The translations under genes were made by a program, and so were the position numbers. From the NCBI GenBank assembly GCA_944320255.1, contig CALUGU010000002.1, positions 10,706 through 74,705 on the forward strand: a stretch of DNA of 64,000 nt, written 5' to 3'. Within the stretch, counting starts at the first letter, position 1. Each line of letters starts with the position of its first letter. Positions 4,862 to 10,754 of this stretch are shown piece by piece. The notes beneath the pieces were generated by a model, which ran no database searches, was not told the origin of the DNA, and saw nothing but the letters and a program-made list of their open reading frames with translations. The stretch comes from an uncultured Prevotella sp. (GTDB lineage: Bacteria; Bacteroidota; Bacteroidia; Bacteroidales; Bacteroidaceae).

Positions 4862-7800
4862 ATGAATTACTTATATTCCCGCATCGCCGAGATTGTAGGC
4901 CTTTACGGCACGGTGAAGCCCGCCACGCTCAACAAGATGGCGCATGAGACGCTCGTGCTCGCTTGCCACGAGGGGCTGCGCGGCAGCGGACAGGCTTACG
5001 GCAACTTGTTCTCGCAGGTGGATTTCCTATGCCGGAAATGCAGCGTGAGGCTTGCCGACAGGGTGCAGATACAGGCCATGCGCCGCCACACCAACCGTGC
5101 GGAAGCCGTCGGCAGGGACGATTTCATGTATGATATGCGCGCCCTCTGCCGCTTCGTCTCCGCCGTGACGGGCAGCGACGTGCCCGGAGAACTGCTGCGG
5201 CTGCTGCCCGCCAACGACCGCCCGCACGCCAAGGCCGAGGGCCTGGACGTGCTATATGTGCGCTGCATAGTGAGGGAAGAGGCCGGCGGTTACGTCTACG
5301 TGACGGCGGAAAAGGGGCTGCAAGGGCGGCTCTTGGCCGTTGACATCTCGTCGGACGACCTCGCCTACCTGCGCAAGATGGTGCACGAGGGGACGCAACT
5401 GAACCTCCTCGACTGCAAAATCAGCGACGCCGCGGCGGGCACGGAACCTGCCGCGAAGGGCGCGGAGCAGGTGGTCACGCCAGGACTTGTGGTGTTCGAG
5501 CCTGACTACCTGATAGACATCAGCTCGTTGGCGGCGTGCTTTAAGGACTACGGACACCATCCCCTGACTTACACCTTGGAACGGATGCGCCCCAAGGCGG
5601 GCAGCCAAGCCATACTGTTGGGAAACCTCGCGGGCGCCGTGCTGGACGGCATCGTCAACGACGGAGAGGCGTTCAGCCTGACCGGAACAATGCGTTCAAA
5701 CTTCGCCGAGAAGGCTCTTGAGTACTGCGCGTGCAAGAATTTCGACGCCGCGCAGTTCAAAGAGGACATCAAGGCGCAAACGGACAACATACGCGAGGCC
5801 GTCAACGTGATGTTCGCCGACCACGACCGCCGGCTCGCCGTGCTCGAACCGTCGTTCGTCTGCGAACGCCTCGGCCTGCAAGGGCGCGTTGACCTGATGA
5901 CGACTGACTTCCGCCTGCTCGTGGAACAGAAGTCGGGCAAGAACCGCAACATCGGGAACGGACGCCCCGGAAACCACGGCAGCTACCACCTTGAGCCGCA
6001 TTACGTGCAGCTGTTGCTCTATTACGGCATCATGAGATACAACTTCAACCTCGGCTTCAACCACACGGACATACGCCTGCTTTACTCCAAATACCCGCCG
6101 GCGCAGGGTCTCATGGCCGTGGTTTTTTACCGCAAGCTGTTCCGCGAGGCGTTGGAACTGCGCAACAAGATTGTCGCCACCGACTTCATGATTGCCCGCA
6201 AAGGCTTCGGAAGGATACTTCCGCTGCTGACGCCGGAGACCATCAACGCGGCGAAACGCGACGACATGTATTACCACACGTGGCTGCTGCCGAGGATAGA
6301 GGAAGTCACCGCGCCCCTGAAAAGCCTCAACCCGCTGGAACGGGAGTACTTTTGCCGCATGGCGACGTTCGCCTACCGCGAGCAGCTGATAGGCAAAGTG
6401 GGGGCGCAGGAGGGCGTAACGGGATGCACGGCCGACCTCTGGAACATGCCGTTAGCCGAGAAGATAGAGACCGGCAACATATACACGGGACTGAAAATCA
6501 CGGCGAAGGAGGGCGGCGAAGACGGCGGCGCGCCCGACAAGCTGACGCTGCGCGTGCCGGGACAGGGCGAAAGTTTCCTGCCGAACTTCCGCCGCGGCGA
6601 CATGGTTTACCTCTACAGTTACCGCGAGGGGCGGGAACCTGACGTGAGAAACAGCCTGCTTTACCGCGCGAGCATAACCGAAGTGCGCACCGAGGAGATA
6701 AAAGTGGCGTTGCGAAACGGGCAGAAGAACCCGGCGATACTGGCCGTGCAGACCGACGGCGACGGCCTAAGATACGCCATAGAGCACGCCGGCGGCGACA
6801 CCGGAGCCGACGCCGCGCTGCGGAGCCTGTATGAGTTTGCCACCGCGCCGGCCGACCGCAAGGCCCTGCTGCTGGGCCAACGCGCCCCCCGGAGAGACGC
6901 CAGGGCGCGGCTCGCGAGGGCTTACAACGAGGCTTACGACGACATCCTGCTGGCCGCCAGGCAAGCCGAGGACTATTATCTGCTGATAGGCCCGCCCGGC
7001 ACGGGCAAGACTTCGATGGCCATAAGGTTCATTGTGGAAGAAGAATTAAGGCGCGCCGACGCCTCGATACTGCTCACGGCGTACACCAACCGCGCCGTTG
7101 ACGAGCTGTGCGCGATGCTCGCCGAGGCGGGCATCGACTACATCCGGATAGGCAGCGAATACAGCGCCGACCCGCGATGCAAGCCCAACCTGCTGTCTGA
7201 AAGGGTGAAGCGGAACCCGCGGCTGGACGACATCAGGGCGGCGATGGCTTCGGCGCGCGTGGTGACGGGCACCACGTCGATGATGGCGGCGCGGCCTTAC
7301 GTGTTCGACGTGAAGGAGTTTTCGCTGGCCGTGGTTGACGAGGCGTCGCAGATACTCGAACCGAACATCATCGGACTGCTGGCCGCCCACCGCGGCGACG
7401 GCGGCGGACAGGAGCGTTGCAGGATAAGGAAATTCATCCTCGTGGGCGACCACAAACAGCTGCCCGCCGTGGTGCAGCAGGATGAGCAGGCGTCAGCCAC
7501 GGACAGCCCGGCGCTGCGCGCGATGCACTTGGACAACTGCCGCAACTCGCTCTTCGAGCGTTTGCTGCGCACGGAGCGCGCCGCCGGGCGCACGGAGTTC
7601 ACGGGCGTGCTGCGCCGCCACGGCAGGATGCACCCCGACGTGGCCGCATTCCCCTGCCACGAGTTCTACACCTACGAGCGGCTAAGCCCCGTGCCCCTGC
7701 CCCACCAGCGGGAGACAACGCTGCACTACGCCCCCACCGGGCTGGCCGACAGCCTCGACAGCCTGCTCCACACGCGGCGCATGGTGTTCATCCCGTCGCT

Positions 7801-8290
7801 GCCGTGCCGACGGCCCGACCTCTCTGACAAGGTGAACACCGACGAGGCGGCCGTCGTGGCCGACGTGCTGCGCCGCATACGACTGATGACAGGCGACGAC
7901 TTCACGGCCGAACGCACCGTGGGCGTCATCGTGCCGTACCGCAACCAGATAGCCGTGATACGCAAAGAGATAGAGCTTACGGGCATGAAGGAGCTTGAGG
8001 CGGTGTCGATAGACACGGTGGAACGCTACCAAGGAAGCCAGCGCGACGTCATCATCTACTCGTTCACCGTGCAGCGCGAGTGGCAGCTTGAGTTCCTTGC
8101 GGGCAGCTGCTTCAGCGACGGCGGGCGCACCATCGACCGCAAGCTGAACGTCGCACTGACGCGCGCGCGCCGCCAGATGATAATGACGGGCAACCCCGGC
8201 GTGCTGTCAACGAACGCCGTCTTCCGTGAGCTTATCGGTTATGTGAAAAGCAAGGGCGGATACCTTGAACGCCAAGGCACAAACGCATAA
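4862..8290 (+). CDS. Dna2/Nam7-like SF1 helicase with N-terminal RecB/Cas4-like PD-(D/E)xK nuclease
   Basis: Nuclease: GRVDL...VEQKSGK and QLLLY. Helicase: GPPGTGKT, VVDEASQ, LVGDHKQLP, VIVPYRNQ, TVERYQGSQRD, RKLNVALTRAR. Confidence 0.85.
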   Translation: MNYLYSRIAEIVGLYGTVKPATLNKMAHETLVLACHEGLRGSGQAYGNLFSQVDFLCRKCSVRLADRVQIQAMRRHTNRAEAVGRDDFMYDMRALCRFVSAVTGSDVPGELLRLLPANDRPHAKAEGLDVLYVRCIVREEAGGYVYVTAEKGLQGRLLAVDISSDDLAYLRKMVHEGTQLNLLDCKISDAAAGTEPAAKGAEQVVTPGLVVFEPDYLIDISSLAACFKDYGHHPLTYTLERMRPKAGSQAILLGNLAGAVLDGIVNDGEAFSLTGTMRSNFAEKALEYCACKNFDAAQFKEDIKAQTDNIREAVNVMFADHDRRLAVLEPSFVCERLGLQGRVDLMTTDFRLLVEQKSGKNRNIGNGRPGNHGSYHLEPHYVQLLLYYGIMRYNFNLGFNHTDIRLLYSKYPPAQGLMAVVFYRKLFREALELRNKIVATDFMIARKGFGRILPLLTPETINAAKRDDMYYHTWLLPRIEEVTAPLKSLNPLEREYFCRMATFAYREQLIGKVGAQEGVTGCTADLWNMPLAEKIETGNIYTGLKITAKEGGEDGGAPDKLTLRVPGQGESFLPNFRRGDMVYLYSYREGREPDVRNSLLYRASITEVRTEEIKVALRNGQKNPAILAVQTDGDGLRYAIEHAGGDTGADAALRSLYEFATAPADRKALLLGQRAPRRDARARLARAYNEAYDDILLAARQAEDYYLLIGPPGTGKTSMAIRFIVEEELRRADASILLTAYTNRAVDELCAMLAEAGIDYIRIGSEYSADPRCKPNLLSERVKRNPRLDDIRAAMASARVVTGTTSMMAARPYVFDVKEFSLAVVDEASQILEPNIIGLLAAHRGDGGGQERCRIRKFILVGDHKQLPAVVQQDEQASATDSPALRAMHLDNCRNSLFERLLRTERAAGRTEFTGVLRRHGRMHPDVAAFPCHEFYTYERLSPVPLPHQRETTLHYAPTGLADSLDSLLHTRRMVFIPSLPCRRPDLSDKVNTDEAAVVADVLRRIRLMTGDDFTAERTVGVIVPYRNQIAVIRKEIELTGMKELEAVSIDTVERYQGSQRDVIIYSFTVQREWQLEFLAGSCFSDGGRTIDRKLNVALTRARRQMIMTGNPGVLSTNAVFRELIGYVKSKGGYLERQGTNA

Positions 8291-8294
8291 AAAC

Positions 8295-8361
8295 AAAAAA
8301 TGGGTCTCCGCTGAGACCCTCATTCCATTGTTAACCTTAAATCTAATACTATGAAAAACAC
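8295..8361 (-). ncRNA. Candidate small RNA with its own promoter and intrinsic terminator
   Basis: Minus-strand TACTTTTG at 8373-8366, body GTTTTTCATAGTATTAGATTTAAGGTTAAC, hairpin GGGTCTC/GAGACCC (8302-8319) followed by a U6 tail on the minus strand. Confidence 0.55.
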
Positions 8362-8489
8362 TGTGCAAAAGTAACAATTCCGTCGGAAACACGCTAATAT
8401 TATTCGATATTTTTATAAAAACACCGCAATTTATTGATTTATGTCAAAAGAACGGATGTAAATCAGTATTATCCCAGGCATAAAAAGGA

Positions 8490-8735
8490 GCTTCACTGCC
8501 GGCTATGCAAACCGTATGGAAGCCCCAGCCCGCACGTCTCCAAGCGGCAATCTGGCAGGCATCCGCAACCAACGGCTAACCCACTGACAGTCAGCCGCTT
8601 GGCCATTTGCCGCAAATCGCGTTGCAAAAGACGGCAAAACGGCGTGCGAAAGACGGCAAACGGGACGACAAAAGGCGGCATCTTGCAACGCAAAATGCCG
8701 CCTCTGCAAAACGCACGGATGGCCGTGCGCCAAAA
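8490..8735. repeat. AAAAG..CTTTT family intergenic repeat (long degenerate array)
   Basis: Phased AAAAGACGGC / AAAAGGCGGCATCTTG / AAAATGCCG units; shares CTGAC(A/T)GTCAGCCGCTTG with 53955..54125. Confidence 0.65.
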
Positions 8736-8741
8736 GCGTCA

Positions 8742-10754
8742 TTATTTATTATAGTTCTCCAAACCCTTGTTGATGAACTCCATGTACTTGGATATGTCCT
8801 CGTCATAGCTGTAAGAGCCGGCCAGGGGCTGGCCTTTCGCGTCGATGATGACGTAGAACGGCTGGGCGTTGGCGCCGAACTTGCTGCGCTGCAAGTAGCT
8901 CCACTTGTCGCCGACGGTGCGCAAAGTGCGCTTCTTCCCGTTCTCAACCACCTCGATGGTCTTGTCCAACGGCGTCTTGTCATCAACGTAGAGTGATACC
9001 AAAACGAAGTCGTTGTTGAGCTTGTCAGCCACCTGCGGGTCGGTCCATACGGCGGCTTCCATCTTACGGCAGTTGACGCATCCGAAGCCCGTAAAGTCTA
9101 TCATGACAGGCTTCCCTTCGGCTGCGGCAGTGGCCATGGCCTGCTCATAGTTGGTGAAGCGCGGCTTCACCTCGTTGTGGTAGAGGTTGAAGTCCTGCGT
9201 GTTCATAGGCGGAGCGAATGCGCTGACGGCCTTGCAGGGCGCGCCCCAGAGGCCCGGCACCATGTAAACCGAGAACGCCAGCGAAATCAAGCCGAGCATG
9301 ATGCACGGCACGGGCATTGCCTCGGTGGAGTCGCCGTCGCTCTTGAACTTGAGTTTGCCGATGAGATAGAGGCCGAGCAGCCCGAAGATGACAATCCAAA
9401 GGGCGAGGAACACTTCGCGGTCAAGCAGCCCCCATCCGTAAGCAAGGTCGGCCACGGAGAAGAACTTGAGGGCGAAGGCCAGCTCGATGAAGCCGAGCAC
9501 CACCTTGATGGTGTTCATCCATCCGCCCGACTTGGGCGCCTGCTTGAGCCATGTGGGGAACAGGGCGAACAGCGTGAACGGCAGGGCCAGGGCTATGGCG
9601 AAGCCAAGCATGCCGACGGCGGGGCCGATGATGTTGCCCGACGTGCTGACCTCAACGAGCAGGAAGCCGATGATGGGGCCGGTGCACGAGAACGACACGA
9701 GCGTAAGCGTGAACGCCATGAGGAATATGCTGAGCAGTCCGCTCGTTGAAGAAGCCTTGTTGTCCACCTTGTTAGTCCACGAAGACGGCAGCGTAAGCTC
9801 GAACCATCCGAAGAAAGACAGGGCGAACACTACCAGGAGCAGGCAGAAGAAGATGTTGAACACGGCGTTGGTTGACAGCGCGTTGAGCGCGCTCGCGCCG
9901 AGGATGAGCGTGATGGCGAGGCCGAGCACAAGGTAAATCACGACAATCGAGATACCGTATGTTATGGCGTCGCGTATGCCCTTCTTCTTGTCCTTGGAGC
10001 GTTTCAGGAAGAAGCTGACGGTCATCGGGATGATGGGCCACACGCAGGGAGTGAACAGGGCGACAAGTCCGCCGATGAAACCCATGAAGAATATGTAAAT
10101 CCAAGAGTGGTCGGCGCTGCCCTGGCCGCCGTTGTAAGCCTGAAGCTCGTCGATGACCGGCGTCCAAAGACCTGTGGTGTCAACGTTAGCCGGCACAGCC
10201 GCGACCATGCTGTCCGTGGCGGCAGAGTCGGCCACGGCTACGCTGTCGGCCTTGGCCGCGGCGTCTTCCACGGCCGCTTCAGGCGCGTCGGCGGGGCCTT
10301 GCCCCTTGAAGTCGAACTCCACTTGGGTGGGAGGCATGCACATCTGGTCGTTGCAAGCCCCATACTCAAGGTATCCCTTGACGTGGTAAGTCTTTGCGGT
10401 AATCTTGTATTTCTGCACGAACGTGGCGGTCTTCTCAAAGAAGCGGAGCGTCATGCCGAACATTTCGTCGTGCTGGCTTATCACCTTTCCCCTCGGCGTC
10501 AACGAGCCTACGGGCTTCAGGCCCTCCGTTGCGTCGGTGTGGATTGAGGCCGACGTGGGGCCGCCGTCAGGCATTCCTGTGGAATAAACGTGCCACCCGG
10601 CGTCGATTTTCGCCGTGAATACGACCTCGATTTCGTCCGGCGCGGTCTTCTTCTGGCTCACGCTGAAGTGCACGGGGTCTTGCATCTGTGCGGCCGCCGA
10701 CAGGCAGAAAACAGTCAGCAGCAGCGTAATGAATGTAGCCTTTATCTGTTTCAT
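8742..10754 (-). CDS. dsbD: DsbD/CcdA-family thiol:disulfide interchange protein
   Basis: N-terminal CNDQMC domain, TM core with FTPCVWPIIP and FSCTGPIIG, C-terminal thioredoxin FTGFGCVNCRKME. Confidence 0.9.
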   Translation of the reverse strand: MKQIKATFITLLLTVFCLSAAAQMQDPVHFSVSQKKTAPDEIEVVFTAKIDAGWHVYSTGMPDGGPTSASIHTDATEGLKPVGSLTPRGKVISQHDEMFGMTLRFFEKTATFVQKYKITAKTYHVKGYLEYGACNDQMCMPPTQVEFDFKGQGPADAPEAAVEDAAAKADSVAVADSAATDSMVAAVPANVDTTGLWTPVIDELQAYNGGQGSADHSWIYIFFMGFIGGLVALFTPCVWPIIPMTVSFFLKRSKDKKKGIRDAITYGISIVVIYLVLGLAITLILGASALNALSTNAVFNIFFCLLLVVFALSFFGWFELTLPSSWTNKVDNKASSTSGLLSIFLMAFTLTLVSFSCTGPIIGFLLVEVSTSGNIIGPAVGMLGFAIALALPFTLFALFPTWLKQAPKSGGWMNTIKVVLGFIELAFALKFFSVADLAYGWGLLDREVFLALWIVIFGLLGLYLIGKLKFKSDGDSTEAMPVPCIMLGLISLAFSVYMVPGLWGAPCKAVSAFAPPMNTQDFNLYHNEVKPRFTNYEQAMATAAAEGKPVMIDFTGFGCVNCRKMEAAVWTDPQVADKLNNDFVLVSLYVDDKTPLDKTIEVVENGKKRTLRTVGDKWSYLQRSKFGANAQPFYVIIDAKGQPLAGSYSYDEDISKYMEFINKGLENYNK

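Follow-up and report, generated by a model that had tools for sequence, protein, structure and literature searches.

The closest described relatives of the sRNA gene analyzed here belong to the FopS family, defined by Ruttiger et al. 2025 in Bacteroides thetaiotaomicron, where there are 14 paralogs (FopS-01 to -14) (PMC11697453). Members have a single-stranded 5' seed, a Rho-independent terminator and canonical sigma-ABfr promoters. The transcripts are ~65 and 70 nt, are induced by bile salts, and come from 12-15 copies in Bacteroides genomes (PMC11697453). To repress its targets, mainly susC-type transporter mRNAs, B. thetaiotaomicron FopS base-pairs beside the start codon, and the paralogs have additive effects. 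The RRM-1 protein RbpB binds FopS, with a CLIP peak that lies within the 5' part of the RNA, and relieves repression. This mechanism was established experimentally by in-line probing, compensatory mutants and in vitro translation (PMC11697453). The authors reported conservation of FopS within Bacteroidaceae only, and the supplements of that paper contain no mention of Prevotella.

Two other sRNAs are useful for comparison. GibS of B. thetaiotaomicron also has the R1 seed at its 5' end. SrcF of Segatella copri (El Mouali et al. 2024, as cited in PMC13750123) is described there as the sole characterized trans-acting sRNA of the Prevotella group, tied to carbohydrate use, single-copy and under a hybrid two-component system. 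We set SrcF and the sRNA analyzed here side by side by description alone and claim no relationship between them.

Here, we analyzed a 64,000-nt stretch of DNA (the window) from an uncultured Prevotella sp. We conclude that the minus-strand region from 8361 to ~8295 is very probably a stand-alone gene for a trans-acting FopS sRNA of ~67 nt that is expected to repress translation by seed pairing.

Anatomy and family assignment

The elements of the gene, and the hairpins that close the next gene upstream, are as follows (window coordinates):

8394..8397, minus strand: putative -33 element, degenerate (TTAG for TTTG), at -36 to -33 from the predicted start
8366..8373, minus strand: -7 box TACTTTTG, of the sigma-ABfr type (consensus TAnnTTTG), at -12 to -5, read from the sequence
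8320..8361, minus strand: single-stranded 5' body, sRNA nt 1-42 (Rfam alignment and centroid fold)
within the 5' body, minus strand: conserved FopS seed region R1/R1', sRNA nt 1-31
8302..8319, minus strand: terminator hairpin GGGTCTC-AGCG-GAGACCC, 7 bp, 5/7 G-C (terminator scan and fold)
8289..8300, minus strand: U-tract of T6, G, T5 (T6 at 8300-8295, T5 at 8293-8289), with an A between the hairpin and T6
8668..8731, minus strand: two strong hairpins with U-runs directly after a dsbD-like gene (fold -44.4 kcal/mol, z -5.8)

The predicted start is the G at 8361, the first base of the body GUGUUUUUCAUAGUAUUAGAUUUAAGGUUAAC. A short linker joins the body to the terminator hairpin, and the predicted transcript runs from 8361 to about 8297-8293, a length of 65-69 nt. 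In the plus-strand direction, TCATTCC comes after the hairpin and there is no T-run, so the hairpin should be an efficient terminator for the minus strand only. A terminator scan of 7800-9200 found this single site; shuffled sequences gave 1.9, so the hit is by itself not above chance. We found no credible open reading frame in the sRNA unit, and the RNA contains just AUG-GAA-UGA. A 61-codon GTG frame (8392-8207) was rejected; it begins upstream of the predicted start and crosses the terminator. We also rejected AUG-GAA-UGA and a plus-strand seven-codon frame (MKNTVQK) as small ORFs; in our view, they arise incidentally from the seed and the promoter box.

A first-pass annotation of the window had described, on the minus strand, a -7 box, an AU-rich single-stranded body, a GC hairpin whose U6 tail exists for that strand alone, and no ORF. 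All of these elements were located where that annotation had put them, with accurate coordinates: TACTTTTG lies at 8373-8366, the centroid fold leaves nt 1-42 unpaired, T6 is at 8300-8295 with TCATTCC on the plus-strand side, and the GTG frame overruns both start and terminator.

The same annotation had suggested a likeness to the paralogous FopS family of Bacteroides, and the proposed comparison with Rfam upheld it. In a scan of 7800-9000 with Rfam 15, the covariance model RF04319 (BTncRNA_FopS) matched 8290-8361 on the minus strand with 73.6 bits (gathering score 56 bits), over model positions 1-71, the full model. The E-value was 1.3e-10 in this local scan and 6.7e-9 over the whole window, far above chance, and RF04319 was the sole sRNA family at gathering threshold anywhere in the window. 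Matches to BTnc231 and isrG were at chance level and were set aside. Judged by sequence and predicted structure, the window locus is an intact FopS-family sRNA gene, and thus a further member of the family described in 2025.

The locus resembles B. thetaiotaomicron FopS in its sequence and structure score (73.6 bits), Rho-independent terminator, TAnnTTTG promoter, intergenic position, multicopy nature and predicted size (~67 nt here). The unpaired 5' seed has two differences from the FopS model consensus in the first 32 positions, and the window copy has a linker and a hairpin sequence of its own. Unlike B. thetaiotaomicron FopS, it has a Prevotella-type host in which we found no RRM-1/RbpB gene; there are 4-5 copies in this genome, in contrast to 12-15 in Bacteroides; and SusC start regions here are not clearly the best seed matches (see below).

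We rejected GibS (RF04182) as the identity of the locus. The match scored 41.6 bits, with a cut-off of 115, and skipped large model segments. The alignment runs only through the shared R1 seed and covers GUGUUUUUCAUAGUAUUAGAU. In contrast to GibS, the window sRNA does not have the ~70 nt that bear seed R2, and its promoter has the canonical -7 box and no PM2 motif. No GibS match above 115 bits was found anywhere in the genome from which the window comes.

Copies in the genome and in relatives

In the genome assembly (2.75 Mb, 52% GC, 92% complete), four FopS matches exceed the cut-off, namely the window copy and those on contigs C15, C92 and C126. A fifth match, on C144, is cut by the contig end. 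The paralogs on C15, C92 and C126/C144 score 74-77 bits, and their alignment extends from the TAnCTTTGCA box across the body. C144 and C126 have overlapping end sequences and probably represent one copy, so the genome has 4-5 copies; the first-pass annotation had supposed a paralogous family, and this genome-wide count is in line with it.

There is a second FopS subtype in this genome (L002:1501-1572, on C15) and at two other loci (L010 and L016). Its body contains an inserted TA (GATTATTAAGG), and it has a hairpin of its own, GGTTGTC...GACAATC. This subtype is kept in at least three species of the genus, indicating at least two maintained paralog lineages. We also noted a decayed FopS-like stretch (L147:302-348, corresponding to C6:22801-22847, minus strand) that scores 28 bits and has neither a -7 box nor a hairpin.

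FopS was present in 23/24 genomes of the same genus and in 9/9 further ones (32/33), and across the surrounding family in 140/149 genomes, representing 26/27 genera. An exact 31-mer core was found in records named Bacteroides, Phocaeicola, Prevotella and Segatella, and also in records named Alloprevotella, Paraprevotella, Mediterranea and Paludibacter. Parabacteroides records and a small number of phage records contain similar sequence. The loci nearest to the window copy among named records are from Prevotellaceae and Prevotella MAGs. The host group is broader than the range (Bacteroidaceae) stated for FopS in PMC11697453.

Among 128 unique FopS loci from named genomes, TAnnTTTG was exactly at -12, the modal position, in 109, TTTG was at -35/-36 in 61, and a hairpin followed by at least T4 was present in 127. 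We also aligned 16 sequences, picked by the covariance model or by synteny. The -7 box was invariant, as were nt 1-31 save for A/G at nt 12; one subtype had a 2-nt insertion. There was no conservation of DNA upstream of -13, and in the terminator stem 5/6 consensus pairs were kept by compensatory double substitutions. Because the box and nt 1-31 are fixed while the flanks and the stem diverge, we infer purifying selection. The pattern points to selection on promoter, seed and terminator function and argues against a neutral repeat. Conservation of the body plus promoter in relatives, on which the first-pass annotation had staked its reading, was found to be nearly complete for the -7 box and nt 1-31. 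In three same-species assemblies (L144-L146), the 491 nt that align with it are 100% identical to the window, so these assemblies are uninformative.

Candidate targets and protein partners

By analogy with B. thetaiotaomicron, the unpaired 5' seed (core UUUUUCAU) would pair across the start codons of mRNAs, this pairing would block ribosome loading and so repress translation, and the paralogs would act additively. We scanned 2030 start regions of the genome for duplexes with the seed (nt 1-25). The scan was crude; it used self-called ORFs and had no accessibility term or mapped 5' ends. Duplexes of -14 kcal/mol or stronger were found at 53/2030 start regions, compared to a mean of 14.3 (maximum 31) for 20 shuffled seeds and 13 for windows inside genes. 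That is, the seed is statistically biased towards gene starts in its own genome. The seed core UUUUUCAU is complementary to AUGAAAAA, with which exported proteins commonly begin.

The start regions of SusC genes are mildly favored, and the enrichment is weak. In this crude scan, eight full-length SusC start regions ranked at 0.02-0.40 of all genes, and the best of them (C30:20683) formed a duplex of -14.5 kcal/mol.

None of the top candidates that we checked in orthologs (iorA, araA and fucI) was a conserved target that would support the pairing mechanism. The start region of iorA (C6:22838), the gene for the alpha subunit of indolepyruvate:ferredoxin oxidoreductase, matches the FopS antisense at 27/31 positions (-28.1 kcal/mol). 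Complementarity was present in 0/29 orthologs, and we read the site as a decayed FopS insertion: the decayed stretch on C6 lies antisense across the iorA start, which accounts for the match of the mRNA start to the FopS antisense. The iorA site may thus be a target site made by the remnant of an sRNA gene. For araA and fucI, the ortholog means were -8.7 and -10.0 kcal/mol, respectively, with a background of -8.3, and complementarity was absent from 25 and 8 orthologs, respectively. The top 53 start regions include araA, fucI, galM, rhaB, rhaD and pfkA. We dropped an enrichment for sugar catabolism among targets because it was post hoc.

Exact complements of the body of at least 11 nt occurred at 53 sites in the genome, about the chance expectation. 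One site (C1:19978-19992, minus strand) is perfectly complementary to FopS over 15 nt (nt 9-23), with ~0.1 such matches expected by chance in the genome. The start codon that it covers belongs to an 83-codon ORF directly following a RadC-like gene. Separately, a multicopy element interrupts the assembly and accounts for at least six contig ends (C3, C42, C46, C54, C66 and C136). Its shared end begins TGAATTGTCC (for example at C3:66751-66792), and the remainder is unassembled. At a possible start codon, this element carries ATGAAAAACAC, 11 nt that are perfectly complementary to the 5' end of FopS.

The first-pass annotation had also described the family as bound by RRM proteins. This holds for B. 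thetaiotaomicron (PMC11697453) and does not carry over to this organism. No RRM-1 domain (PF00076) was found in the 92%-complete genome, and the best E-value in a tblastn search of it with six Bacteroidales RRM proteins was 0.69. RRM-1 was found in 0/24 and 1/9 genomes of the same genus (1/33), some of them incomplete assemblies. Across the surrounding family, in a sample that also includes incomplete genomes, RRM-1 was found in 38/150 genomes, compared to 140/149 for FopS. Hfq, ProQ and KhpA were not found in the genome either. RbpB binding is a feature of the B. thetaiotaomicron circuit and is no part of the definition of RF04319.

With no RRM-1 found, the step in which RbpB antagonizes FopS cannot operate in this organism, and FopS is expected to act either without RbpB or with another partner. 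Likewise, since the 5' sequence is conserved without RbpB, it is either target pairing or another partner that constrains it. We tentatively suggest, with confidence somewhat short of even, that FopS may be a module both older and more widespread than the partner described for it, based on how the two are distributed among genomes. If this is true, then in most lineages FopS does its work with no RbpB, either alone or through an undiscovered partner; its targets may extend beyond SusC; and antagonism by RbpB would be an add-on specific to Bacteroides. We found no statement of FopS without RRM-1 in the papers searched.

It is possible to suppose that the RNA is made and that its main job is something other than pairing with mRNAs. 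It might titrate or guide a protein, and the invariant 31 nt, which exceed the length that typical seeds need, would then be a protein-binding site. The CLIP peak of RbpB in B. thetaiotaomicron falls in this same 5' portion (PMC11697453), and we found no conserved mRNA target in the organism itself. However, the sole known binder, RbpB, is absent, as are Hfq, ProQ and KhpA as far as could be found; the seed has an excess of complementary matches at start regions; and direct pairing and translational repression have been shown for the family (PMC11697453). We consider this explanation improbable and prefer translational repression by seed pairing.

The locus is an ordinary object and its interest is modest; what comparative interest there is lies in the missing RRM partner. 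The published FopS circuit centers on RbpB (PMC11697453). The same seed is found letter for letter in Prevotella-type genomes without RRM-1, Hfq, ProQ or KhpA, and these hosts are a natural test of the parts of FopS function that depend on RbpB. Our results suggest that gut Bacteroidales in general use sRNAs to control translation initiation. The practical value is mainly in annotation, because public records leave FopS genes unannotated.

Genomic context

Copies of FopS evidently move or turn over, as judged from their positions in related genomes. No FopS was found within 1.5 kb of 29 dsbD loci of the same genus that were examined. At two other loci (L020 and L015) a dsbD homolog precedes a FopS copy, and at a third (L030) a helicase homolog (50% identity) is convergent on one. 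The FopS core is also present, unannotated, in Bacteroides phage BX-TP2 (PQ571285.1:44818-44859), three contigs of uncultured phages, and a replicon of Prevotella sp. oral taxon 299 that is in a plasmid-collection record (NC_022111.1:1393012-1393091). Dissemination of FopS by phages has been proposed (PMC11697453), and the copies on phages and the replicon fit this idea.

The lack of synteny with the 29 congeners, the phage copies, the occurrence of copies at contig ends in the assembly, the missing RbpB partner and the plainly decayed copy on C6 could all be explained if the FopS-like block were a silent relic, a repeat that phages or other mobile DNA have dispersed and that is neither expressed nor used in this lineage. 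We think this is very unlikely. The decayed copy shows what lost constraint looks like (28 bits, no -7 box, no hairpin), whereas the promoter box, seed and terminator of the window copy are all intact. In addition, flanks and stems have diverged in relatives and the box and nt 1-31 have not, consistent with purifying selection, and FopS is near-universal in the genus and family. A functional sRNA gene remains our preferred reading.

The immediate neighbors of the gene are on either strand. On the plus strand, an ORF of 1142 aa for a helicase of the SF1 type (AAA_11/AAA_12) has its stop codon at 8288-8290, five bases from T6. It faces the minus-strand sRNA, so the sRNA gene is convergent on the helicase, as had been noted at first pass; the final two bases of the U-tract are antisense to the helicase stop codon. 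The next gene on the minus strand encodes a 670-aa DsbD-like protein (DsbD_N/DsbD_TM/thioredoxin) and stops at 8742. Because this gene has its own tandem terminators, the FopS unit is separate from it and is not its 3' UTR. With its own -7 box and terminator, and with the dsbD terminators insulating the upstream side, the sRNA gene is self-contained, as had also been proposed.

Action on the neighbors, as an antisense partner of the helicase mRNA with a two-way terminator hairpin or as a 3' product of dsbD, is the least likely explanation: the hairpin is 12 nt past the helicase stop without a plus-strand T-run, read-through RNA would be complementary to FopS, and related neighbors recur at L030, L020 and L015, but overlap with helicase coding sequence is limited to the stop codon, the sRNA unit has its own promoter, dsbD closes with two strong terminators ~300 nt upstream, other paralogs have unrelated neighbors, and the arrangement is absent in 29 congeners.

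No public sequencing run that holds the locus is on record as RNA. The runs that hold it include a chicken-gut metagenome. In contigs from three chicken-gut runs, the block at ~8328-8373 was common to the contigs of many organisms. Its summed depth was 100-1000x that of the flanks, which says nothing of expression.

The helicase gene is without a terminator of its own; the sole hairpin past its stop lacks a plus-strand T-run (8288-8320, plus strand). RNA reading through from the helicase gene would therefore be perfectly complementary to FopS, including all paralogs. It is possible that such read-through RNA is a FopS sponge.

On the other side of the gene, the spacer that separates the dsbD terminators from the FopS promoter (8374-8667, ~290 nt) is GC-rich and contains two direct repeats of ~19 nt (8624-8642 and 8647-8665). 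At L020, just ~110 nt separate dsbD from FopS.
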